From Clostridia bacterium (GTDB lineage: Bacteria; Bacillota; Clostridia; Oscillospirales; CAG-272): a DNA stretch of 64,000 nucleotides. Positions 8,912 through 51,401 of the stretch are shown here, piece by piece. The stretch is taken from assembly GCA_017502875.1 (NCBI GenBank), contig JAFVUF010000017.1, forward strand, positions 32,772 to 96,771. Direction: 5' to 3'. How positions within the stretch are numbered: position 1 is the first letter of the stretch; the number at the start of each line of letters is the position of its first letter. The notes under the pieces are model-generated. The model had not been told where the DNA came from and searched no databases. It saw nothing but the letters and a program-made list of their open reading frames with translations. Both the position numbers and the translations under genes were made by a program.

Positions 8912-9934
8912 TTAGTCAAGAATAAATGTCTTTTTCTTTTTCTTGGGTGTCTGAACAGGCTCTGGAGCTGCATCAGTGGGCTTAGCAGCCTTTGTTCTCG
9001 TTCTCTTGGGCTTAGGCGCAGGCTGTTCTTCAATAATTATGGGAGTTTCAATAAGCGCAGAGACTATTTCAACGTTTTCAAGAGATACGTCGGAATTAAC
9101 AATACCCTCGATACCGTCTATCTCAACAGGAACAGGCTTTGGAGCAGGAGTAACGAACTCGTCTCTGCCTATACGGTAGTTTCTGGGAGACTGACCTGTG
9201 CTGTCTCTGAAAACTCTATTGAAGGTACGCTGGTTTTCAAAGCCTGATGCCTCGTATATTTCTGCTACCGGAATATCTGTTGAACGGAGAATGCTCTTGG
9301 CGCACTCAACTCTGAGATTATTGAGGTATTCCTTGAAACCAATACCAAGCTTGTTAGAGAAAAGGTGAGAAAGATGGAATCTGCTGACTCCCATTGCCTC
9401 TGCAAGCTGGTCAAGAGAAATCTGCTCTCTGAAGTGTATACTTAAATATGTAAGAACTCTGTTGGAAAGGTCAGAGGTAACTCCGTCGTGTATCTCCGCA
9501 AAGCGAAGCTTTGAGGTTACTATGCTTACCATGAGGTGTATCCAGCTGTGAGCGATATTTTTGTCGCGCTCCGTTGAAAGAGCTGAGAGAGCGTAGAGAA
9601 GCTGACTTGGGACGTTTATCGCTTTCAGTACAGGCGAGGCAGGACGCAGACCGCTATATCTCTTTATAATGTCCGTGATAAGCTCACATTTAATATTAAT
9701 AACGTAGACAACCGTGTTCTCGCCATCCGGAATTATGCAGTGAAGCATACTTGGCATAATAAACACAAAGTCGCCCTTCGTGAGCTTATACTCAAGCGTT
9801 CCGGTTGTAAGAGCCGCCTCTCCTTTTTCAATAAACAGTAATTCGGCTGAAGTATGAAGGTGCGGCTGAATACGCATTCCTTCCACCTTTTGCAGGCGCA
9901 ATGCCTCAATCGGATTTTCACAGAACGAATTCAT
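8912..9934 (-). CDS. AraC family transcriptional regulator with cupin N-domain and a Pro/Lys-rich C-terminal tail
   Basis: 340-aa ORF. It has a cupin-like N-terminus, an AraC HTH (LDQLAEAMGVSRFHLSHLFSNKLG...GQSPRNYR), and then ~90 aa of low-complexity tail ending PKKKKKTFILD. Confidence 0.85.
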   Translation of the reverse strand: MNSFCENPIEALRLQKVEGMRIQPHLHTSAELLFIEKGEAALTTGTLEYKLTKGDFVFIMPSMLHCIIPDGENTVVYVINIKCELITDIIKRYSGLRPASPVLKAINVPSQLLYALSALSTERDKNIAHSWIHLMVSIVTSKLRFAEIHDGVTSDLSNRVLTYLSIHFREQISLDQLAEAMGVSRFHLSHLFSNKLGIGFKEYLNNLRVECAKSILRSTDIPVAEIYEASGFENQRTFNRVFRDSTGQSPRNYRIGRDEFVTPAPKPVPVEIDGIEGIVNSDVSLENVEIVSALIETPIIIEEQPAPKPKRTRTKAAKPTDAAPEPVQTPKKKKKTFILD

Positions 9935-10249: not shown

Positions 10250-10277
10250 TTGACTTTTTTCGAAAAATATGTATAAT
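10250..10277 (+). promoter_or_regulatory. Sigma-A promoter of the argG operon
   Basis: TTGACT (10250-10255), 16-nt spacer, TATAAT (10272-10277). Confidence 0.55.
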
Positions 10278-10322
10278 AATTCATAAAGAAAAATGTGTAA
10301 AAACGTGAGGAGAATAAATAAA

Positions 10323-11552
10323 ATGGCTGATAAGAAAATTAAGAAGGTTGTTCTCGCTTATTCGGGCGGACTTGATACGTCTATCATTATCCCGTGGCTT
10401 AAAGAGAATTACGATAACTGTGAGGTAATCGCTGTTTCAGGAGACGTCGGACAGGGAACAGAGCTTGACGGACTTGAGGAGAAGGCTATAAAAACCGGTG
10501 CCTCTAAGCTTTACGTCATGGATCTTAAAAAGGATTACGTTGAGAATTACATATATCCCTGCTTAAAAGCCGGCGCGGATTACGAGACCTATCTTCTCGG
10601 AACCTCGCACGCCCGTCCCTGTATTGCGAAGGGACTTGTTGATATAGCAATAAAAGAGGGCGCGGACGCTATCTGCCACGGTTGTACCGGTAAGGGCAAC
10701 GACCAGGTTCGTTTCGAGCTTACTATTAAGGCATTTGCTCCAGATATGAAGATAATTGCTCCTTGGAGAGAGTGGGATATCAAGTCTCGCGATGAGGAGA
10801 TTGACTATGCTGAGGCGCATAATATTCCTCTGAAGATTAACCGTGAGACCAACTATTCTAAGGACAAGAACATCTGGCACCTTTCACATGAGGGACTTGA
10901 CCTTGAGGATCCCGCAAACGAGCCTCAGTATTCTAAGCCCGGCTTCCTTGAAATGAGTGTTGCTCCCGAGCAGGCGCCAAATGAGCCTACATACGTTACC
11001 ATCAGCTTTGAGAAGGGTATTCCTTATGCTATCGACGGAGAGAAGATGGACGCTGTCGCGCTTGTTGAGAAGCTCAATGCCATTGGCGGCGCAAACGGTA
11101 TCGGTCTGCTTGACCTTGTTGAAAACCGTCTTGTCGGTATGAAGAGCAGAGGCGTTTACGAGACTCCCGGCGGAGCTATTCTTTATAAGGCTCACGAGGT
11201 TCTGGAAACTATAACTCTTGACCGCGATACCTCTCACTACAAGAAGCTCGTTGCTCAGAAGTACGGAGAGCTTGTATACTTCGGTCAGTGGTTCACCCCT
11301 CTGCGTGTAGCTCTTGACGCATTCGTTGATTCGACTCAGCAGAGAGTAACCGGAGACGTTAAGCTCAAGCTTTACAAGGGCAATATGATAAACGCGGGCG
11401 TTACCTCTCCGTATTCGCTTTACGATGACGAGGTCGCTTCCTTCGGTGATGACGGCGGTGTTTACAATCAGGCTGATTCCGCTGGATTTATTAATCTTTT
11501 CGGGCTCCCGATAAGCGTTCAGGCAAAGCTTAATAAAAAGCTGGAAAAGTAA
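10323..11552 (+). CDS. argG: Argininosuccinate synthase
   Basis: Start chosen at [20 protein letters not shown] (GAGGAG SD upstream). AYSGGLDTS is the N-type ATP pyrophosphatase motif. Length and sequence are typical of ArgG. Confidence 0.95.
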
Positions 11553-11612
11553 TTTATTGTCTACCCGTCGTTTGTGATGCAATCGACGGGCAGATGTACG
11601 AAAGGGCAAAAT

Positions 11613-12827
11613 ATGAAGTATATTAACGGCGGTGTGTGCGCGGCGCAGGGCTTTAAGGCTGCGGGCATTCATTGCGGAATTCGTAAGAACAGGACTAAAA
11701 AGGACCTTGCGCTCATTATCAGCGAGAAGAAGTGCGCCGCGGCAAGCGTTTACACTACCAATCTCGTAAAGGGAGCGCCTATTACCGTTACTAAAAATAA
11801 CATTTGCGACGGATATGCTCAGGCGATTGTCTGCAACAGCGGCAACGCAAATACCTGTAACGCAAACGGTATTGAGATTGCTACCGATATGTGCAAGCTT
11901 GTAGAGAAATACACAGGTATAAAGGAGACGGACGTTATCTGCGCTTCTACCGGTGTTATAGGTCAGGTTCTTGACATCACGCCTATCGCTACTCATATGG
12001 AGGAGCTTGTTTCCCTACTTAGCGATAACGGAAGTGTTGAAGCCGCTAACGCTATTATGACTACCGATACCAAGCTTAAAGAGGTTGCGGTAGAATTCGA
12101 GGTTGGCGGTAAGATTTGCAAGATGGGCGGTATTGCAAAGGGCTCCGGAATGATACATCCCAATATGGCTACAATGCTCGTATTCATTACTACCGACTGT
12201 TGCATTTCTCCCGAAATGCTTAACAAGGCTATTAAGGCAGACGTAAAGGATACCTTTAACATGATATCCGTTGACGGAGATACGTCAACAAACGATATGC
12301 TTTCCGTTATCGCAAACGGCATGGCTGGAAACGCTGAGATTACCGTTGACAGCGCTGATTATCAGGCTTTTACTGAAGCGCTTCACGCGGTTACCACTCA
12401 GCTTTGCAGAGCTATCGCAAAGGACGGAGAGGGAGCTACTAAGCTTCTTGAATGTGAGGTTGTTGGCGCAAAGGATGCGGAGAACGCAAGAGCTATCGCT
12501 AAGAGCATTATCTGCTCGTCGCTTGTTAAGGCGGCTATGTTTGGCTCTGACGCTAACTGGGGAAGAGTACTTTGTGCTATCGGTTACAGCGGCGCTGATG
12601 TTGACGTAAATAGGGTAGGTGTGTCCTTTGAAAGTGAAAAGGGCAGTATTCCTGTTTGCGTAAACGGGGCAGGTATCGATTTTTCTGAGGAGAAGGCAAA
12701 GGAAATCCTTCTTTGCAGCGATATTAAGATAAAGGTAGCTTTGGGGGACGGCAGCGCTATCGCTACCGCCTATGGCTGCGACCTTACTTACGATTACGTA
12801 AAGATAAACGGTGATTACCGCACATAA
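11613..12827 (+). CDS. argJ: Bifunctional glutamate N-acetyltransferase / amino-acid acetyltransferase
   Basis: MKYINGGVCAAQGFKAAGIHCGIRK N-terminus and the autoproteolysis site HPNMATML. The 13 upstream codons of the track ORF are rejected. Confidence 0.93.
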   Translation: MKYINGGVCAAQGFKAAGIHCGIRKNRTKKDLALIISEKKCAAASVYTTNLVKGAPITVTKNNICDGYAQAIVCNSGNANTCNANGIEIATDMCKLVEKYTGIKETDVICASTGVIGQVLDITPIATHMEELVSLLSDNGSVEAANAIMTTDTKLKEVAVEFEVGGKICKMGGIAKGSGMIHPNMATMLVFITTDCCISPEMLNKAIKADVKDTFNMISVDGDTSTNDMLSVIANGMAGNAEITVDSADYQAFTEALHAVTTQLCRAIAKDGEGATKLLECEVVGAKDAENARAIAKSIICSSLVKAAMFGSDANWGRVLCAIGYSGADVDVNRVGVSFESEKGSIPVCVNGAGIDFSEEKAKEILLCSDIKIKVALGDGSAIATAYGCDLTYDYVKINGDYRT

Positions 12828-12911: not shown

Positions 12912-13556
12912 ATGGCGAAATGCAGAATAATTTTTGTCCGACACGGACAAAGCGAGGGTAATCTTGTAAGGTCGTTTCTTGGGCATACGGACCTTCCGCT
13001 TACTGAGCTTGGACATAAACAGGCTGAGGCTACCGCAAAATATCTGGACGGCACAGACATTGACATAATGTACGCAAGCGACTTAAAGAGAGCCTGGCAG
13101 ACCGCTGAGCATATTGCCGAGCGAAAGGAGCTTAGCATAATAGCTAATCCTATGCTAAGAGAAATATATGCGGGCGAATGGGAAAACGAGATGTTTGAGG
13201 AGCTTCCGAAGAAATTCGAAAAGGATTTTTCCGTGTGGCTAACTGATATAGGAAACGCTCGCTGTACGGGCGGTGAGAGCTTTGTTGAACTGTACAACCG
13301 AATAATTCCTGAGGTTATCAGGATATCCGAGATAAACGACGGGCTTACGGTTTGTATAGCAACGCACGCTACACCTATCAGGTGTGTAAGATTAAAGGCT
13401 CACGGCTATGGCTTTGATAAGGCGAAGGACATTGGTTGGACGTGTAACGCGTCGGTAACGGTCGTTGATGTTGAGGACGGAAAGTTCACGCTGGTAAACG
13501 AGCATCAGTATGAGCATCTCGGAGAGCTTGCGACAGGGCTTCCAAGAAGCGTTTGA
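12912..13556 (+). CDS. Histidine phosphatase family protein (phosphoglycerate mutase-like)
   Basis: RHGQSEGN catalytic motif at the N-terminus and a second His in IATHATPIR. 214 aa. Confidence 0.85.
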   Translation: MAKCRIIFVRHGQSEGNLVRSFLGHTDLPLTELGHKQAEATAKYLDGTDIDIMYASDLKRAWQTAEHIAERKELSIIANPMLREIYAGEWENEMFEELPKKFEKDFSVWLTDIGNARCTGGESFVELYNRIIPEVIRISEINDGLTVCIATHATPIRCVRLKAHGYGFDKAKDIGWTCNASVTVVDVEDGKFTLVNEHQYEHLGELATGLPRSV

Positions 13557-13623: not shown

Positions 13624-14688
13624 ATGAAAAAAGGTTACATCGTTCTTGAAAACGGTCAGGTCTTTGAGGGACAGCGCTTCGGCTATGACGGTAACGCCAT
13701 AGGAGAGCTGGTTTTCAATACCTCTGCCGTTGGTTATATAGAAACCTTGACCGACGCCTGCTATCAGGGGCAGATTCTCGTACAGACCTTCCCGCTTATA
13801 GGCAACTACGGCTGGATAGATTCCGACACAAACGGAAAGGATATAAAGCTTAGCGCTTATATCGTACGCGAGTGGTGCGAGGCTCCGTCGAACTTCCGTT
13901 GCGAGGGAACTATTGACAGCGAGCTTAATAAAAGAAAAATTCCCGGAATTTTCGGTGTCGATACAAGACAGCTCACAAGAATTATAAGAGAAAACGGCGT
14001 TATGAACGCGATGATATGCGACGAGCCCGATAAGGTAGACCTTGAAGCGCTTAAAGCATACAGAAACGAAAACGTTCTCGAAAACGCAGGCATAGAGAAG
14101 AAGGTAACCGTATACAAGGCTGATGATGAAAAGCATAAGGTAACGGTTGTCAACTACGGAGAATATCTTGGCTTTATACCGAGTCTCGTTTCAAGAGGCT
14201 GTACAGTTACTGTCGTTCCTTACAATATGAGCGCAAAGGATATTCTTAATACCGAGCCTGACGGAATTCTTCTTTCAAGCGGCGCTGGCGACCCTAAGGA
14301 AAACGCCGAATGCATTAAGACGGTTGCGGCTTTGGTCGGTAAAAAGCCTATATTCGCAATCTCGCTCGGTCATCAGATACTTGCTCTGGCAAAGGGCGCT
14401 GATACCTACAAGCTTAAATACGGACACAGAGGCGCAAGTCAGCCTGTTAAGGATATTTCAAGCGGCAAGACTTACATCACCTCTCAGAATCACGGATACG
14501 CGGTTGACAGCGACTCTGCCTTAAAAGTAGGCGGAAGGATAACCTTTGTTAACGGCAACGATGCTACAAACGAGGGTGTTGAATATGCCGCGGACAAGGC
14601 GTTCTCGGTTCAGTTCATTCCCGAAAAGGGATTTGGTACTGAAAATACCGAGAAGGTTCTGTTTGATAAGTTCGTCGCAAGTCTTTGA
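13624..14688 (+). CDS. carA: Carbamoyl-phosphate synthase small subunit homologue with degenerate glutaminase active site
   Basis: Clear CarA-like sequence throughout. The GICLGHQ motif reads AISLGHQ (Ser247, TCG 14362-14364). The QxHPE motif reads QFIPE (Ile332, ATT 14617-14619). Confidence 0.9.
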   Translation: MKKGYIVLENGQVFEGQRFGYDGNAIGELVFNTSAVGYIETLTDACYQGQILVQTFPLIGNYGWIDSDTNGKDIKLSAYIVREWCEAPSNFRCEGTIDSELNKRKIPGIFGVDTRQLTRIIRENGVMNAMICDEPDKVDLEALKAYRNENVLENAGIEKKVTVYKADDEKHKVTVVNYGEYLGFIPSLVSRGCTVTVVPYNMSAKDILNTEPDGILLSSGAGDPKENAECIKTVAALVGKKPIFAISLGHQILALAKGADTYKLKYGHRGASQPVKDISSGKTYITSQNHGYAVDSDSALKVGGRITFVNGNDATNEGVEYAADKAFSVQFIPEKGFGTENTEKVLFDKFVASL

Positions 14689-14718: not shown

Positions 14719-17700
14719 ATGCCAATTTGTAAGGATATAAAAAAGGTTCTTGTTATCGGCTCAGGTCCTATCGTTATCGGTCAGGCTGCAGAGTTTGACT
14801 ACGCCGGAGCGCAGGCATGCCGCGTGCTTAAAGCAGAGGGCATTAATGTTGTTCTCGTTAACTCTAACCCTGCTACGATAATGACTGATAAGGCGCTTGC
14901 AGATGAAATATATCTTGAGCCTCTTACTGTTGATACCGTAAAGAGAATTATTGAAAAGGAAAAGCCCGACAGTATTCTTGCCGGTCTTGGCGGTCAGACG
15001 GGTCTGACTATCGCTATGCAGCTTGCAAAGGAGGGCTTCCTTGAAAAAACGGGCGTAAGGCTTCTTGGAACTAATGCCGAAGCGATAGATAAAGCGGAGG
15101 ATAGAGAGCTTTTCCGAGACACAATGAAAAAGATAGGTCAGCCCTGCATACCCTCTGATATAGCAACTACGCTTGAAAAGGCTGAGGAAATAGCTGAAAA
15201 GATAGGCTATCCCGTTATTATTCGACCCGCCTTTACGCTTGGCGGCGCGGGCGGCGGTGTCGCGTACAATCTTGACGACCTTCGTATTATCGCCAAGAAC
15301 GGACTTATGCTTTCTCCCATAACGCAGGTGCTTGTTGAGAAGTATATCTACGGCTGGAAGGAAATCGAGTTCGAGGTAATGCGCGACAGTGTTGGAAACG
15401 CTATCGCTATATGCTCTATGGAGAACGTTGACCCTGTTGGAGTTCATACGGGCGACTCAATAGTCGTCGCTCCCGCGGTATCGCTTTCCGCTAAGGAATA
15501 CAGCATGCTCCGCAACGCTTCGCTTGATATAATTACCGAGCTTGGTATTGAGGGCGGCTGTAACTGTCAGTTTGCGCTTGATCCTAACAGTATGGATTAC
15601 GCAGTTATCGAGGTTAACCCCCGTGTTTCCCGTTCCTCCGCACTTGCTTCAAAGGCGACGGGATATCCTATAGCCAAGGTTACCTCAAAGATTGCTCTCG
15701 GTTATACTCTTGATGAGATAAAGAATGACGTTACGGGAACTACCTACGCCTGCTTTGAGCCTGCGATAGACTACATCGTTGTAAAATTCCCGAAGTGGCC
15801 CTTTGACAAGTTCGTTCACGCCAGCAGAACGCTTGGAACGGCTATGAAGGCGACGGGCGAGGTTATGTCCATTGCGCCTACGTTTGAGATGGCGATAATG
15901 AAGGCGGTAAGAGGCGCGGAGATATCACTTGATACTCTTAACAATCCCGCTATACAGGCAACAGAAAATATCGTTGATAAGCTCGGTAACCGTGATGACA
16001 GACGTCTCTTTACAGTTTTTGAGGCTTTAAAGAGAGGTATTACTGTTGACGAGATAAACAGAATAACGAAAATTGATAAATGGTTTATTAATAAGCTTAA
16101 AAATCTTGCGGAATTTGAGGACGATATCGCGGGAGTTAAGCTTACCGATGAAAACTATATTAAGGGTAAAAAATTCGGTTATACCGATAAGGCACTTGAA
16201 AGAATAAGCGGATATCCGCTTCCCGCAAGTAAGGACGCCGCATTTAAGATGGTTGATACCTGCGCTGCGGAGTTTAAGGCGGTAACCCCTTACTTCTACT
16301 CGACATATGATGATGAGTGCGAGGCAAGAGAGCTTGTGGGCACTGAGTGTAATAAGGAAAGAATTATCGTTCTCGGCTCAGGTCCTATCCGTATAGGTCA
16401 GGGTATTGAGTTCGACTATTCGTCAGTACACTGTGTTTGGGCGCTCAAAAAGCTCGGTTATGAGGTCGTTATTATAAACAACAACCCCGAGACCGTTTCT
16501 ACCGACTTCGATACTGCCGACAGACTGTACTTCGAGCCGCTTACTCCCGAGGACGTTATGAACGTTATCAAGGTAGAGAAGCCTGTTGGAGTAGTTGTCG
16601 CGTTTGGCGGTCAGACGGCTATTAAGCTTACTAAGTTCCTTGATGAAAACGGAATACAGATTCTCGGCACGTCAGCGGACGGAATTGACGTAGCTGAGGA
16701 CAGAGAACGCTTTGACGCGCTTCTTGAATCCTTTAATATAAGACGTCCCAAGGGACTCTCGGTTATGACCGAGGCAGAGGCTCTTGAAGCGGCTGCTACG
16801 CTTGGATATCCCGTTCTTCTTCGTCCTTCCTACGTTATCGGCGGTCAGAATATGACAATCGCTCATACCGAGGAGGACGTAAAGAGATACATGAAGATAA
16901 TTCTCGCCCAGGGTATTGAAAACGCGGTTCTTGTTGACCAGTACCTTATGGGAACTGAGCTTGAGGTTGACGTTATATCTGACGGTGAGGACGTTCTTAT
17001 TCCCGGTATTATGGAGCATATTGAGCGCGCCGGTATTCACTCAGGAGACTCTATCGCGGTATATCCGCCCTATAACCTGAGCGACAAAATGCGTAAAACG
17101 GTTATTGACTGCTCAACCAAGCTCGCTCTTTCTCTTAAAACCAAGGGACTTGTTAATATTCAGTACCTTATTTACAGAAACGAGCTTTATGTTATAGAGG
17201 TTAACCCAAGAGCTTCAAGAACTGTTCCCTATATCAGTAAGGTAACAAACGTTCCGATGGTTGATCTTGCGTCAAAGATTATGGTCGGAGCAAAGCTAAA
17301 GGATTTTGATTATGGCACAGGTCTTTATAAGACTCCGCCTTACTATGCCGTAAAGGTTCCCGTGTTCTCCTTTGAGAAGCTTAATGACGTTAACTCGGCG
17401 CTCGGCCCTGAGATGAAATCAACGGGTGAGGTTCTCGGTATAGGTAAAACTCTTAACGAGGCTATATTCAAGGGAATGATTTCGGCGGGCTTTAAGCTTT
17501 ACGATCATACCGACAATGCGGCTAAGGGTGTATTTATCACCGTTTCCGATCAGGATCAGCTTGAAATTGTTAAGCTCGCTAAGAAGCTTGACGAGCTTGG
17601 CTTCCACATTTACGCTACAAGAGGAACGGGCAGAGAAATTGCATCTCTCGGTATAGACGTAACGATAGTAAGAAACCTCAGCAAGTCAAATGAGATAATG

Positions 17701-18762
17701 GAGCTTCTTGAAAGCGAAAAGCTTAACTATATCGTTTACACGGGTATCGGTCAGAAGAAGTCTATTGAGGACTTTATAAGACTCCACCGTCGCGCAACAC
17801 AGCTTGGTGTCGCTTGCCTCACGTCTCTTGATACGGCAAACGCACTTGCTGACATTATTGCGTCCAGATATACTGAGCAGAATACAGAGCTTGTCGATAT
17901 CAACTCGATGAGAACTGAAAAAATGCCGCTTAAATTCCTTAAAATGCAGAGCTGCGGCAACGACTATATTTTAGTCGATAACCGCGACGGCGCTATAACC
18001 TGTCCCGAATCTCTTACTCTTATGTATACAGACCGTCATTACGGCGTTGGCGCGGACGGACTCGTGCTTATTGAAAATTCCGAAACAGCAGACGCAAAGA
18101 TGAGAATGTTCAATATTGACGGTACAGAGGGAATGATGGCAGGTAACTGTATCCGCTGCGTAGCTAAGTATCTCTACGATAACGATATCGTAAAGAAGGA
18201 AGAGATGAGGATAGAAACCGCCAGCGGCGTTAAAGACGTAACAGTATACCTATCAAATGACCTCGTAACGTCTGCCTCTGTTTATATGGGTAAGGCTGAC
18301 TTTAATCCTAAGAGAGTTCCTGTTAAGCTCAAGGGAGAGAAGATACTTGATTATCCCGTTACAGTAGGCGATAAGGAGTATAACATCAGCTGTGTTTCTC
18401 TCGGAAATCCTCACTGCGTTGTATTCTGCGACAAGGTTGATGCGGTTGACGTTGAGACGGTAGGACCTCAGTTTGAGTGCAACAAGCTGTTCCCTGAGAG
18501 GATAAACACTGAGTTTGTCCGTGTGGTAAACAGAGGAATGCTCAAGATGAGAGTATGGGAGAGAGGAAACGGCGAAACTCTTGCCTGCGGAACAGGCGCA
18601 TGCGCTGCGGTTGCCGTAGCGTGCGAGCTTGGTCTTTGCGACAAGGGAACGGATATTACCGTTAAGGTAAAGGGCGGAGACCTTATAGTTAACTATTCTG
18701 ACGACGGAGTAGTTCTCACAGGTAACGCAAAGCTTGTTTACAGAGGCGAGCTTAAATACTAA
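14719..18762 (+). CDS. carB: Carbamoyl-phosphate synthase large subunit fused in frame to diaminopimelate epimerase
   Basis: 1347-aa uninterrupted ORF. Residues 1-1068 are CarB (two ATP-grasp halves and an MGS-like end ...LTSLDTANALADII). From ATG 17923 it reads MPLKFLKMQSCGNDYILVD...SLGNPHCVVF...LACGTGACAA, a full-length DapF with both catalytic Cys motifs. Confidence 0.9.
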   Translation: MPICKDIKKVLVIGSGPIVIGQAAEFDYAGAQACRVLKAEGINVVLVNSNPATIMTDKALADEIYLEPLTVDTVKRIIEKEKPDSILAGLGGQTGLTIAMQLAKEGFLEKTGVRLLGTNAEAIDKAEDRELFRDTMKKIGQPCIPSDIATTLEKAEEIAEKIGYPVIIRPAFTLGGAGGGVAYNLDDLRIIAKNGLMLSPITQVLVEKYIYGWKEIEFEVMRDSVGNAIAICSMENVDPVGVHTGDSIVVAPAVSLSAKEYSMLRNASLDIITELGIEGGCNCQFALDPNSMDYAVIEVNPRVSRSSALASKATGYPIAKVTSKIALGYTLDEIKNDVTGTTYACFEPAIDYIVVKFPKWPFDKFVHASRTLGTAMKATGEVMSIAPTFEMAIMKAVRGAEISLDTLNNPAIQATENIVDKLGNRDDRRLFTVFEALKRGITVDEINRITKIDKWFINKLKNLAEFEDDIAGVKLTDENYIKGKKFGYTDKALERISGYPLPASKDAAFKMVDTCAAEFKAVTPYFYSTYDDECEARELVGTECNKERIIVLGSGPIRIGQGIEFDYSSVHCVWALKKLGYEVVIINNNPETVSTDFDTADRLYFEPLTPEDVMNVIKVEKPVGVVVAFGGQTAIKLTKFLDENGIQILGTSADGIDVAEDRERFDALLESFNIRRPKGLSVMTEAEALEAAATLGYPVLLRPSYVIGGQNMTIAHTEEDVKRYMKIILAQGIENAVLVDQYLMGTELEVDVISDGEDVLIPGIMEHIERAGIHSGDSIAVYPPYNLSDKMRKTVIDCSTKLALSLKTKGLVNIQYLIYRNELYVIEVNPRASRTVPYISKVTNVPMVDLASKIMVGAKLKDFDYGTGLYKTPPYYAVKVPVFSFEKLNDVNSALGPEMKSTGEVLGIGKTLNEAIFKGMISAGFKLYDHTDNAAKGVFITVSDQDQLEIVKLAKKLDELGFHIYATRGTGREIASLGIDVTIVRNLSKSNEIMELLESEKLNYIVYTGIGQKKSIEDFIRLHRRATQLGVACLTSLDTANALADIIASRYTEQNTELVDINSMRTEKMPLKFLKMQSCGNDYILVDNRDGAITCPESLTLMYTDRHYGVGADGLVLIENSETADAKMRMFNIDGTEGMMAGNCIRCVAKYLYDNDIVKKEEMRIETASGVKDVTVYLSNDLVTSASVYMGKADFNPKRVPVKLKGEKILDYPVTVGDKEYNISCVSLGNPHCVVFCDKVDAVDVETVGPQFECNKLFPERINTEFVRVVNRGMLKMRVWERGNGETLACGTGACAAVAVACELGLCDKGTDITVKVKGGDLIVNYSDDGVVLTGNAKLVYRGELKY

Positions 18763-18777
18763 TTTAAAAAATATTTT

Positions 18778-19146
18778 GAGTGGACGGCGCAATTGCGTAA
18801 TATGTTGCCGAAAGGTATTATTGCGAGGAAAGTCCGGGCTTCATAGGGCAGGATAACTGATAACGTCAGCCGAGGGTGACCTCCGGGAAAGTGCAACAGA
18901 AATAAACCGCCGAGTTTTACTCGGTAAGGATGGAAAGGCGAGGTAAGAGCTCACCGGCAGCTTGGTAACAAGCTTGCAAATGTAAACCCTATCCGAAGCA
19001 ACACCGTAATGTGAAAGGAGCATAAGCTCACGTTTGCCCGACGGAATTTCATAGGTGGCGAGGAGCTTTATGGCGACATAAAGCCAAGATAGATAATTGC
19101 GGTCGGTTTTTAAAGCCGTCACAGAACCCGGCTTACAAGTCCACTC
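18778..19146 (+). ncRNA. rnpB: RNase P RNA, bacterial type A
   Basis: P1 pairing GAGTGGAC...GTCCACTC. Universal motifs GAGGAAAGTCCGGGCT, AGTGCAACAGA, GGTAAGAGCTCACC and ACAGAACCCGGCTTA are colinear with the E. coli M1 RNA layout. Confidence 0.93.
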
Positions 19147-19157
19147 AAAACCATTTT

Positions 19158-19195
19158 GACCGCAAAAAGAGCTTTCTTTTTGCGGTCTTGCTTTT
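19158..19195 (+). terminator. Rho-independent terminator after rnpB
   Basis: GACCGCAAAAAG-N6-CTTTTTGCGGTC followed by TTGCTTTT. Confidence 0.75.
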
Positions 19196-36334: not shown

Positions 36335-37234
36335 ATGCTTAAAGATTACACTGATATAAAAATGAAAATGCTTAGCTATGCCGTTTCGTTGCTTCCGGAA
36401 AGATTTCGCTCAGCCTGCAATAACTACCTTCTTGCTTATCCTGATATTTGTGAAATACGACTGCGTATAGACTCTCCGCTTTCATTTACTCTTTCTGCAA
36501 GCAATCTGATTACCGGTATGATGATAAGCCGTGAGGATATCCGTTTTACTCTTGATAAGATGACTGACGGTAATTATTTTAAAAACGAGGAGCTTATGAG
36601 AGGCGGTTATATCAGTCTTTTGTACGGAATTCGTGTTGGTGTATGCGGCGACGTTTTTGTAAGCGGTGGCGCAGTAAAAACGTTAAAATATGTAAATTAC
36701 ATAAATATCCGATTACCGTCAGCCTTTATTTCCGACTGCTCTCCCCTGATTTCTTATATTGAAAGCTCATTGTTTTCGGCTTCTGTACTTGTTATTTCAC
36801 CGCCATGCTGCGGTAAAACCACACTTTTGCGTTCTGCTGCGCTAACACTTGCAAGCGCGCCTTACAATAAGCGTGTTTGTGTGGTTGATACCAACAGAGA
36901 GCTGCTTCTCCCCTCCTCGTTTGGTGTCGGTCTATGTGAATATATGGTTGGTTATCCAAAGGCTTACGGTATTAACGTAGCGATGAGATATATGAATCCA
37001 CAGTATATTATTTGTGATGAAATAGGTGGAAGCGATGAGGCTGAGGCTATATGCGAGCTTCAGCATTCCGGAGTTCCCTTTCTTGCCTCTGCTCACGCGG
37101 ACACGTTTGCTTCACTTAAAATGCGTAAAAATATAGATATTATGCTCCAAAACGGTGTTTTTGAGGCTGTTTTGAGAATAAAAAGGACAGGGAAATCCTT
37201 TGAATACGAAATTAAAAGGGTGAGTGAATTATGA
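36335..37234 (+). CDS. spoIIIAA: Stage III sporulation protein AA (ATPase)
   Basis: 299 aa with Walker A SPPCCGKTTLLR. First gene of a colinear AA-AG set with overlapping starts and stops. Confidence 0.88.
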   Translation: MLKDYTDIKMKMLSYAVSLLPERFRSACNNYLLAYPDICEIRLRIDSPLSFTLSASNLITGMMISREDIRFTLDKMTDGNYFKNEELMRGGYISLLYGIRVGVCGDVFVSGGAVKTLKYVNYINIRLPSAFISDCSPLISYIESSLFSASVLVISPPCCGKTTLLRSAALTLASAPYNKRVCVVDTNRELLLPSSFGVGLCEYMVGYPKAYGINVAMRYMNPQYIICDEIGGSDEAEAICELQHSGVPFLASAHADTFASLKMRKNIDIMLQNGVFEAVLRIKRTGKSFEYEIKRVSEL

Positions 37235-37692
37235 GGACGGTAATAGGTATTCTCATATTAGCTTTCTCGGTGGTTTTGGCGTATATAAGGTATTATAATT
37301 TAAACAAAAGTCTAAAAATTAATCAATTTTTCTGTCTCTTGGCTGAAAAAAACGTTAAAAACAATCTACGGGAGATGCTTCCCTTTTCGGTGTTGTTTAG
37401 CGAGCTTTACCAAGCTCATTTTGATGAATGCGTTACTCTTAACGGAAGCGATGAGGTTTTTGAGTATATTGAAAGCAATATGCAACCCTTTTATAATTCA
37501 AGTAAAATTATCTCAGCGTTTAAGGCTTTCGCTTCATCAACTGAAAGTGAGCTTGAGGCTTGCGCAAAGGCCCTGATTGATGAAACCCAAGCAGGATATG
37601 AATCAGCAAAGGATTCGTTTCAGAGGTACGGCAAGGTATCATTTATTTTATACCCCTCCTGCTCTGCTATGGCTATGCTTATAATGCTATAA
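37231..37692 (+). CDS. spoIIIAB: Stage III sporulation protein AB
   Basis: 153 aa with an N-terminal TM helix. Position and size match SpoIIIAB, and it is translationally coupled to AA. Confidence 0.75.
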   Translation: MRTVIGILILAFSVVLAYIRYYNLNKSLKINQFFCLLAEKNVKNNLREMLPFSVLFSELYQAHFDECVTLNGSDEVFEYIESNMQPFYNSSKIISAFKAFASSTESELEACAKALIDETQAGYESAKDSFQRYGKVSFILYPSCSAMAMLIML

Positions 37693-37711
37693 TAAATAGG
37701 AAGAAAATGAT

Positions 37712-37909
37712 ATGGATGTTGGACTTATATTAAGGATTGGCGGAATCGGACTTATAGTCATGGTGCTGAATATATTTTTAAGCAAGAACGGACGCGATGA
37801 CCATGCAAATCTTGTTGCTCTCGCAGGAGTGATAATCGCAATATTATTACTTGTTACAAAGCTTGGCGAGCTGCTTGACATGATAAGCGGGGTGTTTGGT
37901 GTTGGCTGA
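37712..37909 (+). CDS. spoIIIAC: Stage III sporulation protein AC
   Basis: 65 aa with two TM helices. MDVGLILRIGGIGLIV...NGRDDHANLVALAGV is typical of SpoIIIAC. Confidence 0.85.
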   Translation: MDVGLILRIGGIGLIVMVLNIFLSKNGRDDHANLVALAGVIIAILLLVTKLGELLDMISGVFGVG

Positions 37910-38294
37910 GATATACAAGGCGTGCGGAGTTGCGATAATTGCTCTCGTGCTTACCGCAGTTCTGAAAAACCAAAGCGCGCAAATCGCCCCGTACATCACG
38001 CAAATCAGCGCAATAATTATAATTATAAGCTCAATTTCAGCTTTAATACCTGTTTTTACCTATATAAGAGAGCTATCGAGTGGACAAGCTACTGACATAA
38101 ATAATATTTATTTAGTCGTGCTTGCGGGAGCAATTGCGTTTGTAGGAGGAGTAGCAAGTGAGCTTTGTAAGGAAAACGGGGCAAATATGCTTAAAAACGC
38201 GCTTGATTTTTCCGTTAACGCAAATATTATGCTTCTTTCGCTTCCGCTTATCAAGGAGCTTGTTGTTAAAGCTACTGATATATTAAAGCTATGA
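37896..38294 (+). CDS. spoIIIAD: Stage III sporulation protein AD
   Basis: 132-aa polytopic membrane protein related to AC. Position is conserved. Confidence 0.8.
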   Translation: MVLAEIYKACGVAIIALVLTAVLKNQSAQIAPYITQISAIIIIISSISALIPVFTYIRELSSGQATDINNIYLVVLAGAIAFVGGVASELCKENGANMLKNALDFSVNANIMLLSLPLIKELVVKATDILKL

Positions 38295-39382
38295 GAAAAA
38301 TGGTTATTTTCTTATTTACCTTGGTTTTGCTTACAAGACCGTGCTTTGCGGAGGAATACGTTATAGACGGTGAAGGTGAAGACAATAGCTTTAAGACTGA
38401 GGATTATCTTCCGCAAGATGTTCTGGAAATACTGAATAATAACGGCATAACAGAGCCGGAAAAAGTAAGCGGAACGGATATTATAAAATTGCTTATTGAT
38501 TACCTCTTAAACGGCGCGGACAAGTATTCGAAAATCGCAATTGAGCTAATTGGAATAGCGATAATTGTATCAATAATCAAAAGAATTAATGATAATAATA
38601 CTAACTTATTGATTATAAGTCTTATTTGTTGTTTGGCTATATGTACTGTTATGCTTTCCGTTTTTAATGATATATGCATAAGAGCTAATGAATCACTTTC
38701 ATCATTATCCGAGCTTTTGAGCCTTTTATTGCCTTCTTTTGTGTCTGTGTATATGCTCGGTGGCGAGGCATTATCGAGCGCAGCATCTGCAACCTCTTTT
38801 GGAGCTGTTCTTGCTCTACTTGAAATATTTCTATCGGGTATTATAGAGGGGATGGTAAGCATAATGGTCGTTATTTCTGTTTTTGAGAGAGTATCCCCTT
38901 CTTTAAACGTATTCGGAATAGTTAAAACAGTAAAAAAGTATTCTATAATGCTTATTTCCTTTATAACAACAGTCATGTTAACCGTTCTGTCCTATCAGAA
39001 TATAATAAGCGCGCGCGCGGATTCTATATCAACAAGAACCGTTAGGTTTGCCGCGGCGAATTTTATACCGATAGTAGGAAACGCAGTCGGAGAATCATTA
39101 AAAACTGTTACAAAAGGTGTTTCTTATCTTAAAGCTTCAGTTGGCGTATCCGCCTCGCTTGCCTTATTTTTTTGCATCTTGCCATTCATTTGCGAGCTTG
39201 TTATATTGAAGCTGATAGTATCTTTTGTATCAGTTTTCTTTACTGCTTTAGGGTGTGAGCAAGAGGGTTCGTATATTTCATCTTGTGTTGGATTTATTGA
39301 TATTATCCTATCAATTATCATTTGTTGCCTAATATTATCATTTCTATTGATTTATTTGTTTACTATTGTTACGGTTGGATAA
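38291..39382 (+). CDS. spoIIIAE: Stage III sporulation protein AE
   Basis: 363 aa with a signal peptide and multiple TM helices. The ANFIPIVGNAVGESLKTV motif is typical of SpoIIIAE. Confidence 0.85.
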   Translation: MRKMVIFLFTLVLLTRPCFAEEYVIDGEGEDNSFKTEDYLPQDVLEILNNNGITEPEKVSGTDIIKLLIDYLLNGADKYSKIAIELIGIAIIVSIIKRINDNNTNLLIISLICCLAICTVMLSVFNDICIRANESLSSLSELLSLLLPSFVSVYMLGGEALSSAASATSFGAVLALLEIFLSGIIEGMVSIMVVISVFERVSPSLNVFGIVKTVKKYSIMLISFITTVMLTVLSYQNIISARADSISTRTVRFAAANFIPIVGNAVGESLKTVTKGVSYLKASVGVSASLALFFCILPFICELVILKLIVSFVSVFFTALGCEQEGSYISSCVGFIDIILSIIICCLILSFLLIYLFTIVTVG

Positions 39383-39387
39383 GGCGT

Positions 39388-39888
39388 ATGAAGGAGTTTT
39401 TTTCGAGTTACGTATATGCGCTTATTGTTGTTTCAGTTATAACAGCGCTTGTTTCCGCTATTGTTTTCCACTCTCCGTTTAAAGGCTCGGTTAACACTGT
39501 GTGCGCTCTTGCTGTGCTTAGTACTTTAATTTCAGTATTCTCACCCGTAATTTCTTTTTTAAATGAAATAGATTTCAAGGCTCAGCCTGATGATACATCT
39601 CCTCCCGAATTTTCGTTAAACGACGAGACTCAGATTAAAGAAACGGGCAGGTATATTTGCGTATTTACCGAGGAAATGCTTGTATCGAGACTTGGGCTTG
39701 ATAAAGATGACTTTTCTGTTGCTATAACGCTGGATTTTGACGGTGAAAACCCAGTTTCAATAAAGACAGTAACAGTTACCCTTAATAAAAACGTAAGCGT
39801 TTCTGCAGCCGTTATTTCCGAACTTGTTTCCGATACACTTATGTGTGAATGCCTTGTTATTACCCCTGAAACTGCTAACAGCGAATGA
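39388..39888 (+). CDS. spoIIIAF: Stage III sporulation protein AF
   Basis: Start at MKEFFSSYVYALIVVSVI (internal ATG of the track ORF, which otherwise overlaps AE). Two N-terminal TM helices and a soluble domain. Confidence 0.7.
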   Translation: MKEFFSSYVYALIVVSVITALVSAIVFHSPFKGSVNTVCALAVLSTLISVFSPVISFLNEIDFKAQPDDTSPPEFSLNDETQIKETGRYICVFTEEMLVSRLGLDKDDFSVAITLDFDGENPVSIKTVTVTLNKNVSVSAAVISELVSDTLMCECLVITPETANSE

Positions 39889-46693: not shown

Positions 46694-48106
46694 TCAAAAT
46701 TCCATATTCATAAAGAACAATTCGGAAAACAAAAGGTCAGCCGAAAGATCTATGTACTCCGCTTTTTCTGTAAACACATCAAGTTCATTTCTCTCGATTG
46801 CGTATTTTACAGTACCGAGCAAGCTACTGTTATTAACCGGTACAAACTTATCAAGAAGCTCGTTTGGTATGAGTCCAACGAAAGCGGCATTCTTCGAATC
46901 AATACTCGCTGAAAAACCGCCTGCTACATACAAAGCCTCAATATCGTCAAATGAAGCTCCTGCTCTTTTAATAAGGCAAATAATTGCTGAAAGCACTGCG
47001 GATTTAGCGAGCTGAAACTCTCTAACATCCCTTTGAGTAAGAGTAACAGAGTCCGTTATACTAAACTCCTCATCCTCCATATATCCGCTATTGTCAATAA
47101 TCTTATTTCGGACAAGATAAGCTATTATGTCTACAAGTCCGGTAGCGCAAAGTCCGATAGGAGCAATATTACCTATTACCTTATAATTACCGTCAGACTG
47201 ATATACGGAAATTGCTCCGTTTATAGCGCTCATTCCGCATGAAATATTGGCGCCCTCAAAGCAAGGACCTGCCGCAGCCGCAGTTGAATACGCCTTGTCT
47301 TTACTAAAAAGAACTACTTCGGCGTTTGTTCCGAGATCAACAAGAAGGGCATACTTACTCTCGCTTGGCGTCCCTATATAATTCATACCGGCTACTATAT
47401 CAGCTCCTACAAATGCGGATATACTCGGAAGTGAGCGTACAGTATCAACCTTGTCAATACCTAATGCTTCTCCCTTTACGCACATGGCTTCTGTAAAGCT
47501 CGGAGTATATGGCGCGACGCCCATTGACGAACAATCTACACCGAAAAAGATATGTAGCATTGTTGCGTTACCTGATACGAGCATTTCCGGAAAAGATGAA
47601 AGACCGTACTGCTTTGTAATTTCAGCTATCATTTCGTTTACGGCGCCTTTTATAGCTTCGTAAAGCGCAACAACGCCGTTTTTACGGCAGTGATCAATTC
47701 TTGATATAACATCAGCGCCAAAGGCTCTTTGCGGATTAGTTTTTGTAATTACCTTTATTATACTCCTATCATCAAGAGATACAAGCGCAAGCGCAAGGGT
47801 TGTTGTTCCTATGTCAAGACAAAGACAGATATTCTTTGTCAGACAACCTTTTTCCTCTGCTCCGCTTACTGAAATCATCTCTGTCTGCTCAGGAATACTT
47901 ACGGTAATATCACAGTTAACCTTATACTGACACGATAGCTCCGGCTTGCCGTTAACGTAAACAGTACACTTTTTGCAGCTTCCCTTTCCGCCGCACAAAT
48001 GCTCAACGTATACTCCGTTTGAATTTAAAAGCTCAGAGAGCATACGTTCTCCCTCAAAGCTTATTATACTATGTTCACCGTTACCGATGACCTTTACATT
48101 GGGCAT
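46694..48106 (-). CDS. Corrinoid reductive activase (2Fe-2S ferredoxin domain plus ASKHA ATPase, RACE/DUF4445 type)
   Basis: 470 aa. N-terminal LCGGKGSCKKCTV...C ferredoxin motif. ASKHA phosphate motifs LDIGTTTLALAL and VDLGTNAEVVL. Confidence 0.85.
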   Translation of the reverse strand: MPNVKVIGNGEHSIISFEGERMLSELLNSNGVYVEHLCGGKGSCKKCTVYVNGKPELSCQYKVNCDITVSIPEQTEMISVSGAEEKGCLTKNICLCLDIGTTTLALALVSLDDRSIIKVITKTNPQRAFGADVISRIDHCRKNGVVALYEAIKGAVNEMIAEITKQYGLSSFPEMLVSGNATMLHIFFGVDCSSMGVAPYTPSFTEAMCVKGEALGIDKVDTVRSLPSISAFVGADIVAGMNYIGTPSESKYALLVDLGTNAEVVLFSKDKAYSTAAAAGPCFEGANISCGMSAINGAISVYQSDGNYKVIGNIAPIGLCATGLVDIIAYLVRNKIIDNSGYMEDEEFSITDSVTLTQRDVREFQLAKSAVLSAIICLIKRAGASFDDIEALYVAGGFSASIDSKNAAFVGLIPNELLDKFVPVNNSSLLGTVKYAIERNELDVFTEKAEYIDLSADLLFSELFFMNMEF

Positions 48107-48107
48107 T

Positions 48108-48665
48108 TTAATTCTCCTTGAAAAGTACTGCGCCGAAATATGTTACGGTATCCTGACCGTTTATGTATTTCATACCTGCTGCCGGCGCAAGCTGAGATAC
48201 GTTTACACCGTATGCTTCAAGCGATGGCATAGCCAGCTCAGGGAAACGGCATGGCTCACCGGTCCTCTTTGAACACACCTCGCACACACCGCAACCGCCC
48301 GCACCGAGATGCAGAGCATTGGTTATATTCATATCCTTGAACACGTTACGCAGCTTTTGAGCAATTGGATAAGTAGATTTTTTTGCCTCAACCATTCCCT
48401 CAAAATCGAAGCTGTCTTCAAGCTCAGTTACAGTCTGATAAACGAGTGCGTAGTCGTATTTTCCGACCTCTGCCATAAGCATGTCGATATCTCCAACATC
48501 GGGTGGGCACATCCAGCACTTGCCGTATACTCCGCAAGCATTTGTTTCGCACATATTACGAAAAGCTCTGTCAAGAGATATTTTATTTACAGCAATTACA
48601 TTTGCCTTATAGGCGCCGAGATTTTTTACTTCCTCGATAAGCCTTTCGAACAACTTATTTTCCAT
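48108..48665 (-). CDS. DUF2284 metal-binding protein
   Basis: Cys-rich CETNACGVYGKCWMCPP and GGCGVCEVC. The ATG at 48665 overlaps the stop of the upstream gene (ATGGAAAATAA). Confidence 0.7.
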   Translation of the reverse strand: MENKLFERLIEEVKNLGAYKANVIAVNKISLDRAFRNMCETNACGVYGKCWMCPPDVGDIDMLMAEVGKYDYALVYQTVTELEDSFDFEGMVEAKKSTYPIAQKLRNVFKDMNITNALHLGAGGCGVCEVCSKRTGEPCRFPELAMPSLEAYGVNVSQLAPAAGMKYINGQDTVTYFGAVLFKEN

Positions 48666-49668
48666 AGAATTCCTCTGATGCCGCAAAGAACGCATCAATA
48701 TTCTTCCAAGGAGTCATAGGCGGCATATCACAGCCTGATGACAGAACGAAGTTTTCATATTTACAGCATTTTTCCATAAGAGAAATCGTAGCTTCTCTTA
48801 CGCCTTCGGGAGTTCCCATACGGAGCACGCCCGCAGGATCAATGTTGCCCATTACTACGGTATCCGCGGGAACCTGGGAGATTATATCCTTCTCCATATC
48901 AACGGCGTTACCGAAATGGTACGCCGCGCAGCCCGTACTGAGTATTGAGTCAAGCATTTTGGGAACGTTATCTCCGCAGTTGTGATAGATGAGAACGAAC
49001 TCATCATCCTGTATCGCCTCAGCAATCTTCTTTACGTAAGGCGAGGAAAATTCCTCCTCAAGCGAGGGAGAGAGCAATCCTGCTACCGGCTCTGCCATTA
49101 CTATTCCGTTAGCGCCAACAGCCTTGTATGCCTTTGCGTATTCGATAAGAAAATCCGTAACCTTTTCCATTACGAGATGTACCATATCGGGATCGTCGTA
49201 GCAGTCCATCATAATCTCTGAAACGTCAAGAAGTCTTGCCGCCAATGAAAACGGACCTATCATTCCCGCAAGCACAGGGCGGTCGGTAATTATTTCGGAC
49301 GCCTTTTTGATTGCATCAATGTATATCTGCGTTCTACCGCTTCCGATAGCAGGAACTTCAAGCGCCTGCGCTTCGTCCATATCGTTGATAATTCTTCCCT
49401 TAACAGTAGGAACCTCGTCATCAGATACGGAAACTGTCGCGCCAAAGCACTCAGCCTCGACTGATAAATCCATGAAGCTTACAGAGGCGGCGGCGTCTGT
49501 TCTGTCCGCGACAAGCTTCATTCCCTTTGCCTGAAGCGCGCTGTCGGATATGAGCTCACGAACAGTTATGCCAAGAAGGCTTACGCAAGGAAATGAAAGC
49601 ACAGGTATAGGCTTTTTAGGTTGTGTTCCTTTTAAGCTCTCTACCCAATTTTTCATATTGTATTTCAC
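48655..49668 (-). CDS. MtaA/CmuA-type methylcobamide methyltransferase (URO-D superfamily, Zn site present)
   Basis: 337 aa. IYHNCGD and SSGCDMPP give the His-x-Cys...Cys zinc triad typical of MtaA/MtbA-like MT-II enzymes. Confidence 0.8.
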   Translation of the reverse strand: MKYNMKNWVESLKGTQPKKPIPVLSFPCVSLLGITVRELISDSALQAKGMKLVADRTDAAASVSFMDLSVEAECFGATVSVSDDEVPTVKGRIINDMDEAQALEVPAIGSGRTQIYIDAIKKASEIITDRPVLAGMIGPFSLAARLLDVSEIMMDCYDDPDMVHLVMEKVTDFLIEYAKAYKAVGANGIVMAEPVAGLLSPSLEEEFSSPYVKKIAEAIQDDEFVLIYHNCGDNVPKMLDSILSTGCAAYHFGNAVDMEKDIISQVPADTVVMGNIDPAGVLRMGTPEGVREATISLMEKCCKYENFVLSSGCDMPPMTPWKNIDAFFAASEEFYGK

Positions 49669-49690
49669 AGAGAATTCTCCTTTTCAAAAT

Positions 49691-50752: not shown

Positions 50753-50771
50753 TTATATCAGCCCCTTTAAT

Positions 50772-51401
50772 TTATTTGCAAAGCTCGACTGCTGCGTCAG
50801 CAGCGGAAGCCGCGTCAGAGGTGTAGCAATCTGCACCAATCATACGGCAGAATTCCTCGGAAACGGGAGCGCCACCTATCATTATCTTTACCTTATCACG
50901 AATACCCGCATCTTCCGCAGCCTTAACTACGTCGCCCATAACGCCCATTGTGGTCGTAAGAAGCGCAGAGCAGCAGATGATCTGACAGTCATTCTCGATG
51001 GCGGCATTTACAAATGCTTCGGGAGATACGTCGGTTCCGAGGTCAATAACCTCAAGGCCCTTGCCCTCAAGCATCATTTTTACAAGGTTCTTACCGATAT
51101 CGTGAAGGTCTCCCTGAACGGTACCTATGCAAACCTTACCCTTTGCCTGTACTCCATCGCTTGCGAGCAGAGGCTTGAGAACCTGCATACCCATATTCAT
51201 AGCTCTTGCCGCAACAAGAACCTCAGGAACGTAAACCTCGTTATTCTTGAACTTTTCGCCAATAACGTTCATTCCGTCAAGCAGCGCGGAAAGAATATCC
51301 TTGCTTGCGACGCCCTCGTCAATTGCGGTCTGTACCTGCTCCTTTACGAGCTTTGCTTTGCCCTTCTGAAGATTTTCGCTGATTTCGTTGATAATGCTCA
51401 T
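50772..51401 (-). CDS. Corrinoid (cobalamin-binding) protein
   Basis: 209 aa. Helical cap plus Rossmann domain with the DxHxxG motif in GTVQGDLHDIGKNLV. Confidence 0.92.
   Translation of the reverse strand: MSIINEISENLQKGKAKLVKEQVQTAIDEGVASKDILSALLDGMNVIGEKFKNNEVYVPEVLVAARAMNMGMQVLKPLLASDGVQAKGKVCIGTVQGDLHDIGKNLVKMMLEGKGLEVIDLGTDVSPEAFVNAAIENDCQIICCSALLTTTMGVMGDVVKAAEDAGIRDKVKIMIGGAPVSEEFCRMIGADCYTSDAASAADAAVELCK

Follow-up and report, generated by a model that had tools for sequence, protein, structure and literature searches.

The gene carA in the 64-kilobase (64-kb) window analysed here, the whole 64,000-nucleotide stretch from contig JAFVUF010000017.1 of a Clostridia bacterium, encodes a carbamoyl-phosphate synthase (CPS) small subunit that has Ser and Ile in place of the nucleophile Cys and the catalytic base His of its glutaminase triad. 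The alignments strongly support the conclusion that the Cys-His-Glu glutaminase chemistry is unavailable to this protein. The enzyme, which is encoded in an arginine operon, is probably an ammonia-dependent CPS in which CarA has been kept as a structural subunit, that is, as a pseudo-glutaminase. Moreover, the loss of the triad is a recurrent, clade-wide trait of gut Clostridia of the Oscillospiraceae/Ruminococcus type.

The product of the gene belongs to the CarA family by its two-domain architecture (PF00988, residues 6-131, and PF00117, residues 187-351), by its score of 376.4 bits against TIGR01368, the model for the small subunit of glutamine-hydrolysing CPS, which exceeds the curated cut-off of 307.35, and by the co-oriented gene for the large subunit, CarB, that lies next to it. 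E. coli CarA could be aligned with it from end to end (phmmer against the PDB, E = 4e-68) and without gaps near both catalytic motifs, which pairs Ser247 with Cys269, Ile332 with His353 and Glu334 with Glu355, and places the motif F-A-I-S-L-G-H-Q on F-G-I-C-L-G-H-Q and the motif Q-F-I-P-E on Q-G-H-P-E. These columns did not change when E. coli CarA was aligned by MAFFT with either 119 or 150 homologs. The initial annotation of this DNA had proposed that the Cys reads Ser247 (TCG), that the His reads Ile332 (ATT) and that the usual EASPGP reads EKGFGT. Both codons can be read directly from the sequence, the last motif corresponds to Glu334 followed by the loop K335-G-F-G-T, and the TIGR01368 match together with the gap-free alignment does put Ser and Ile in the catalytic columns. 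The top PDB match of the protein was itself the engineered E. coli C269S mutant (1c30, phmmer). An AlphaFold model with 43 homologs as input had a mean predicted local distance difference test value (pLDDT) of 92.7 and a predicted template-modelling score (pTM) of 0.91, and the predicted fold matched that of E. coli CarA (1cs0_B) with a template-modelling (TM) score of 0.91.

When the protein is compared with a class-I triad amidotransferase (Enzyme Commission number, EC, 6.3.5.5), Ser247 occupies the place of the nucleophile Cys in the G-x-C-x-G elbow, Ile332 stands for His353 with only Glu334 kept from the His353-Glu355 pair, and Cys46 is found at the column of Ser47, which we take to be the serine that stabilises the oxyanion through its Oγ in E. 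coli. The proposal that triad-type glutaminase chemistry has been lost is thus strongly supported, both by the replacement of Cys and His and by that of the presumed oxyanion serine. The residues expected of a glutamine-binding scaffold are present, namely G220, G222, L248, Q251, N289, G291 and Y292, which correspond to G241, G243, L270, Q273, N311, G313 and F/Y314 of the E. coli protein.

An error of sequencing or assembly at TCG and ATT was rejected with near certainty, because the identical 354-residue protein is encoded on seven contigs from at least five independent assemblies. These include ENA ERZ28653793 (a 286.9-kb scaffold), ERZ28654312 and ERZ27256848, and Logan SRR12529312 and SRR12529278, and to judge from the record names they come from metagenomes of the ruminant gut. 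In addition, substitutions of the same type are common to relatives from 98% to about 60% identity, which answers the question, raised with the initial annotation, of whether close relatives share them. The 120 closest database homologs were aligned, and 119 full-length ones were classified with E. coli CarA as reference: 62 have the canonical Cys/His/Glu triad, 51 are without both Cys and His, and six are without one of the two. In every homolog between 98% and about 62% identity the Cys is replaced by Ser, Gly or Ala and the His by Ile, Val or Thr, and the first canonical sequence in order of falling identity, P0025, appears at 61%.

A wider set came from 1.84 billion cluster representatives, all scanned with HMMER. 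Among the best 150 clusters at 50% identity, both residues are missing in 85, the triad is canonical in 50, one residue is missing in ten and five are gapped at a catalytic column; these counts are not a census, as fast-evolving dead copies fall into more clusters. Triad-less CarA is encoded by intact, full-length open reading frames (ORFs) in dozens of lineages whose identity falls as low as about 40%, and neither frameshifts nor truncations of carA were seen. Few members carry names, and these are Clostridia bacterium, Ruminococcus sp. and Oscillospiraceae metagenome-assembled genomes (MAGs). In a scan of GTDB genomes with CarA, all relatives among the matches listed were at 54% identity or lower and nearly all were canonical. 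One triad-less cluster, P0139 (members P0318 and P0319, from Ruminococcus sp. and Oscillospiraceae MAGs), has the motifs FGIGLGHQ ... VQFAPV and bears the NCBI name 'glutamine-hydrolyzing carbamoyl-phosphate synthase small subunit', which is probably an over-annotation.

Sites other than the triad have changed with it. Column 47 (E. coli numbering) is Ser in all 62 canonical near relatives and in 49 of the 50 canonical cluster representatives, while in the 51 triad-less relatives it is Cys in 30 and Ser in 17, the rest having Asn or Ala. A Cys at this column is found in degenerate CarAs only (30/51 near relatives and 14 degenerate clusters, against 0/62 and 0/50 canonical sequences), and there in at least three separate groups. 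Ser35, Met36, Pro358 and Gly359 presumably line the ammonia tunnel of the E. coli enzyme, and we take Pro360 and His361, with Arg265 of CarB, to be the part of the tunnel wall that was perforated experimentally. Column 36 is Met in 62/62 canonical relatives and Ala or Val in 46/51 triad-less ones. A356, G359 and P360 are likewise present in all 62 canonical relatives; the triad-less set has Lys, Ala or Asp at 356, Phe, Ala or Ser at 358, and Thr, Glu, Gln or Lys at 360. The loop A356-C-S-G359-P360 has become K-G-F-G-T in the window protein and D/N-W-A-G-Q/E in the lineage of P0049, and a bulky aromatic residue arose independently in these two dead lineages (Phe337 in the clade of the window protein, Trp in that of P0049). 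It seems, then, that the presumed wall of the ammonia tunnel was remodelled along with the loss of the triad, and we conjecture that the aromatic residues are compatible with a disused, plugged tunnel. In work of Raushel and Holden the replacement G359F (PDB 1m6v) reportedly blocks the E. coli tunnel; in the window protein, this loop carries the bulky Phe337 beside Gly338.

The scaffold of the pocket is kept in the near triad-less relatives (G241, G243, L270, G271, H272, Q273, Q310, N311, H312, G313 and Y314). In the 85 triad-less clusters, Q273 is kept in 51, G313 in 60 and Ser47 in 15; the other residues at column 47 are mainly Ala (23), Cys (13), Asn (10), Gly (7), Arg (7) and Thr (5), and column 269 is Gly in 71. 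Such a pattern looks like that of an abandoned active site in which the fold-critical glycines persist.

The triad-less relatives P0009, P0022 and P0029 have the same synteny as the window, with a divergent AraC gene and the order argG-argJ-phosphatase-carA-carB::dapF, and in a different triad-less lineage (P0049) the order is argG-argH-argF-carA-carB::dapF. Since the canonical P0025 (locus L087) occupies the same argG-argJ-phosphatase-carA-carB::dapF locus, it is orthologous to the window gene, which means that the loss of the triad took place at this locus and not in a divergent paralog. In a tree built from the partner CarB, in which the CarA sites at issue have no part, triad-less loci fall at four separate positions, each adjoining canonical loci. 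The window groups with locus L086; the CarB of the triad-less L090 shares 90.7% identity with its counterpart in the canonical L087 and only 83.7% with that of the window; L092 lies amid the canonical L014, L018 and L025; and L041 adjoins the canonical L043. This repeated placement beside canonical loci requires at least four independent losses, and the CarA tree suggests more. Partial states are also present in the CarA tree, with Gly269 beside retained His and Glu (P0032 and P0111) or with Cys kept and His lost (P0052, P0115 and P0120).

The dead subunit is under purifying but relaxed selection, and the relaxation lies mainly in its glutamine amidotransferase (GATase) domain. With synonymous sites near saturation, the ratio of non-synonymous to synonymous substitution rates (dN/dS) of CarA was 0.062 against P0002 (dS 1.4) and 0.105 against P0009 (dS 1.7). 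The GATase domain alone gave 0.06-0.13 and the N-terminal, CarB-binding domain 0.044-0.053, the latter being better conserved; for CarB, which is intact and strongly constrained, the values against close relatives were 0.015-0.034. The divergence of CarA relative to that of CarB was calculated from pairs with CarB 90-99.9% identical, excluding identical pairs. The median of this ratio over 32 canonical pairs was 1.5, and the ratio was 3.5 both in a triad-less pair and in the pair formed by the canonical L087 and the triad-less L090, so that triad-less CarA moves, relative to CarB, at about 2-2.5 times the speed of canonical CarA. The divergence of the GATase domain relative to the N-terminal domain was 1.01 in canonical pairs and 1.3-1.6 in pairs with dead copies. 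Independent dead pairs are few, about three, and their direction is consistent and is that expected if the constraint on catalysis was lifted and the protein itself retained. The non-catalytic role for CarA suggested in the initial annotation fits these values, as well as the intact ORF and the coupling of carA to carB.

This coupling is translational. The start of the partner gene, a carB::dapF fusion, lies 30 nucleotides after the carA stop, and the order of the two genes is kept in all related loci. The CarB part of the fusion is complete (TIGR01369, 1401 bits), and its diaminopimelate epimerase part, DapF (TIGR00652, 273 bits), has both catalytic-Cys motifs intact. The order carB-dapF was found, as adjacent tblastn matches, in about 35 GTDB genomes, which belong to Oscillospiraceae, Christensenellales, Mobilibacterium and other groups, and L087, L090 and L092 have fused gene calls of 1344-1345 residues. 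The carB-dapF arrangement is widespread in relatives with canonical CarA and is a lineage trait unrelated to the loss of the triad; a literature search found no published account of the fusion. Within CarB, the only positions differing in at least two of the five dead lineages are E187D/A, T255S, D258A/P and G864D/E, which are weak candidates; no convincing compensatory or 'ammonia portal' signature was found, and no substitution is common to all dead lineages. Of the residues that presumably bind the phosphate of uridine or inosine monophosphate (UMP/IMP) in E. coli CarB, K954, K993, N1015 and T1017 are not conserved in the CarB of the window and T974 and T977 are, from which no conclusion is drawn. 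Two further observations concern this gene. In the MAG GCA_054290425.1 (L086, 11083-15126) carB::dapF is called as two ORFs of 878 and 449 residues, which is explained by a frameshift or an assembly error, or else by a true division of the gene. Three MAGs have dapF directly after a canonical carA (L019 11088-11924, L027 11186-12019 and L034 4899-5738), with no match to carB anywhere in the fetched loci, which hints at a rearrangement of an ancestral carA-carB-dapF order.

In the ammonia-dependent enzyme that we consider probable, CarA would keep its fold and its partnership with CarB without hydrolysing glutamine by the Cys-His-Glu mechanism, and CarA-CarB(::DapF) would make carbamoyl phosphate from free ammonia, bicarbonate and two molecules of adenosine triphosphate (ATP). 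The reason for keeping CarA would lie in the folding, stability or activity of CarB, and not in chemistry. The driver may have been the ammonia-rich, energy-limited gut, where a route without glutamine would spare the ATP that glutamine synthetase consumes. That ammonia would be the nitrogen donor is suggested by analogy with mutants of the E. coli enzyme and with CPS1. When Cys269 or His353 of E. coli CarA is replaced singly, as in the mutants C269S, C269G and H353N, glutamine-dependent synthesis is reportedly abolished and ammonia-dependent synthesis retained (Rubino 1986, Miran 1991, Huang and Raushel 1999). The C269S enzyme (PDB 1c30 and 1c3o) carries the same nucleophile substitution as the window protein; however, the E. 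coli mutants have single changes made in the laboratory, whereas here several coupled changes were fixed in nature and are conserved. The title of Huang & Raushel 2000, which PMC4655335 lists, says that the E. coli enzyme with an engineered blockage of its tunnel cannot use glutamine but can still use ammonia, and thus external ammonia would need no route through the small subunit.

Several points weigh against an ammonia-dependent enzyme. The Km of E. coli CPS for ammonia is poor, and a useful enzyme would need adaptations, for which CarB offers T255S and D258A as weak candidates only. A second canonical CPS may exist outside the window and carry most of the flux; within the 64-kb window there is no second canonical carA or CPS, and there are no pyr genes. 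Finally, Q251, N289, H290, G291 and Y292 are invariant in the clade of the window protein, which also fits continued ligand binding. That the enzyme is the only CPS of the cell, a convergent bacterial counterpart of CPS I making the precursor of both arginine and pyrimidines from free ammonia, is conceivable but rather doubtful.

Continued ligand binding would be expected if CarA had become a sensor, whose pocket takes up glutamine or a related ligand and which passes the nitrogen status of the cell allosterically to CarB. We regard this as unlikely, although G220, G222, L248, G249, H250, Q251, Q288, N289, H290, G291 and Y292 are invariant or nearly so in near relatives. Moreover, the C269S mutant 1c30 has been crystallised, reportedly as a glutamine complex (Thoden et al. 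1999), so that a Ser should permit binding. However, the decay of Q273, G313 and Ser47 in the wider set of clusters argues against a general ligand-binding role, and the retained glycines and nucleophile-elbow motif may be purely structural. A sensor pocket does not exclude ammonia-dependent synthesis, and both can hold.

The conserved residues of the site could also mean that catalysis was rebuilt, with Cys46 or Ser247 as nucleophile, perhaps together with Glu334-Lys335, hydrolysing glutamine or another amide. Cys46, Ser247, Glu334 and Lys335 are indeed conserved through the clade, and the restriction of the column-47 Cys to separate groups of degenerate CarAs would agree with a new function for it. 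Nevertheless, Ser247 is replaced by Gly in P0015 and Glu334 by Ile or Gln in P0008 and P0021, all of the same clade, no general base has taken the place of His353, and the drift at column 47 and the prevalence of Gly269 in the triad-less clusters speak for a released site and not for a new active site, which makes this account highly improbable. The same low credence applies to a specific rewiring in which the thiol moved from column 269 to column 47 (Cys46), Ser247 became hydrogen-bonding and Glu334-Lys335 replaced His353, giving a Cys/Glu/Lys-type amide hydrolase in a class-I GATase fold; P0111, which combines Gly269, His353, Glu355 and Cys47, could be an intermediate toward it. It is also quite improbable that carA is a dispensable remnant in neutral decay, its task being performed by a second canonical CPS encoded at another place in the genome. 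The operon context is arginine-specific, as in Bacillus, which has a second, pyrimidine-specific CPS, and the accelerated divergence of CarA relative to CarB would suit such decay. On the other hand, the dN/dS values of 0.06-0.13, with near-saturated synonymous sites, the intact full-length ORFs in dozens of lineages with neither frameshifts nor truncations seen, and the very strong constraint on the partner CarB all speak against it.

Among the known systems close to the ammonia-dependent enzyme proposed here is vertebrate CPS1 (EC 6.3.4.16; PDB 5dot/5dou). In the human enzyme Ser294 stands for the catalytic Cys, for which reason it is unable to use glutamine, and it takes ammonia from the environment; all CPS types except CPS1 use glutamine (PMC4655335). 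Its glutaminase-like domain is homologous to the window protein (phmmer, E = 2e-57), whose predicted fold matches the N-terminal moiety of CPS1 with a TM score of 0.87; both have a Ser in place of the catalytic Cys, and both belong to the arginine/urea pathway, here by position in an arginine operon. However, CPS1 is a single fused polypeptide of about 1500 residues, whereas carA and carB are separate ORFs in the window, in the bacterial two-subunit format of independent origin and with a C-terminal DapF on CarB. As far as PMC4655335 states, CPS1 lost the Cys alone, while here the His was lost too. CPS1 also needs N-acetylglutamate; the operon of the window contains argJ, which was not counted as evidence.

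The carAB genes lie inside an arg operon also in the arginine-specific CarAB of the Bacillus/Lactobacillus type, as in the window and in the P0049 lineage, although the enzyme of that type has an intact triad and uses glutamine. The canonical carA-carB::dapF loci of Oscillospiraceae and Christensenellales, for example those of Dysosmobacter and Oscillibacter and the locus L087, are orthologous to that of the window and have the same fusion, with CarB 70-85% identical to that of the window, and L087 shares the order argJ-phosphatase-carA; they differ in keeping Cys269, His353, Glu355, Ser47, Met36 and the A-C-S-G-P loop. A full-text literature search found no published description of a natural bacterial triad-less CarA. 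CarA, CarB and the CPS I precedent are already known, and the interest of the case lies in the recurrence of the loss and in the surviving intermediates.

If these enzymes are ammonia-dependent, the transition from CPS II to CPS I happened repeatedly in gut Clostridia. The surviving states (loss of Cys only, loss of His only, and intact orthologs in the same locus) would then form a natural series for the evolution of a pseudoenzyme, which also bears on the remodelling of the ammonia tunnel and on the gain of affinity for free ammonia. In the nitrogen economy of the rumen and gut, one ATP would be saved for each carbamoyl phosphate if arginine were made directly with ammonia, and metabolic models built on 'glutamine-hydrolyzing' names would assign the wrong nitrogen donor. 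Should a second CPS exist in the cell, the pair would correspond, in a bacterium, to the division of labour in vertebrates, where CPS I serves arginine/urea with ammonia and CPS II serves pyrimidines with glutamine; should there be none, all carbamoyl phosphate of the cell would come from free ammonia.

Table 1. Positions of the arginine operon, of the altered carA codons and of adjoining features in the window.
Feature	Position	Strand	Description
AraC/cupin regulator gene	8912..9934	-	divergent from argG; syntenic in L086, L089 and L090
Sigma-70-like promoter match	10250..10277	+	TTGACT-16-TATAAT, 11/12; just upstream of argG; consensus match only
argG	10293..11552	+	argininosuccinate synthase; first gene of the operon
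argJ	11574..12827	+	ornithine acetyltransferase / N-acetylglutamate synthase
Histidine-phosphatase-family gene	12912..13556	+	PF00300; between argJ and carA
carA	13624..14688	+	354 residues; N-terminal CPSase small-chain domain and class-I GATase-fold domain without catalytic Cys and His
Ala35 codon	13726..13728	+	column of E. coli Met36
Cys46 codon TGC	13759..13761	+	column of E. coli Ser47
Ser247 codon TCG	14362..14364	+	column of nucleophile Cys269 of E. coli CarA; context F-A-I-S-L-G-H-Q
Ile332 codon ATT	14617..14619	+	column of catalytic base His353; context S-V-Q-F-I-P-E-K-G-F-G-T
Glu334 and loop K335-G-F-G-T-E340	14623..14643	+	retained triad Glu355; loop stands for canonical A-C/S-S/P-G-P-H
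carB::dapF fusion	14719..18762	+	1347 residues; CPS large subunit at 1-1051, diaminopimelate epimerase at about 1072-1346
Ribonuclease P (RNase P) RNA gene	18777..19151	+	Rfam RF00010, 271 bits; 15 nucleotides past the carB::dapF stop
Terminator-like hairpin	19158..19187	+	strong, 13-bp stem; after the RNase P RNA gene

In the window, carA is the fourth gene of the co-oriented cluster argG-argJ-phosphatase-carA-carB::dapF (Table 1), and the location of carAB within an arginine operon (argG-argJ-x-carA-carB) is that of an arginine-specific CPS. The RNase P RNA gene and the hairpin behind it mark the end of the transcription unit. A 93-residue ORF called at 18841-19122 on the minus strand was rejected as spurious, because the RNase P RNA gene occupies 18777-19151. 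No riboswitch or leader was found in the operon by the Rfam scan, in which the downstream RNase P RNA was the only match. The AraC/cupin regulator may control the arginine operon in place of ArgR. The histidine-phosphatase-family gene keeps its place between argJ and carA throughout the loci of the group, that of the canonical ortholog included, and its product does not reach the cut-off of either the CobC or the PspA model.

Just downstream of carB-dapF lie murD and a gene for a cell-wall amidase. Farther along, the window carries on the minus strand (46694-54216) a cluster of the corrinoid methyltransferase type, with three URO-D/MtaA-like genes, a B12-binding protein, a reductive activator of the RACo type and a DUF2284 gene; it includes a regulator (51476-53032) in which AraC ligand-binding and helix-turn-helix domains are fused to B12-binding domains. 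Genes of the spoIIIA operon (AA and AE) are located at 36335-39400 and a separate spoIIIAH-like gene at 57057-57644, and therefore the host is probably a spore-forming bacterium of the Clostridium class. The G+C content of the window is 43%.

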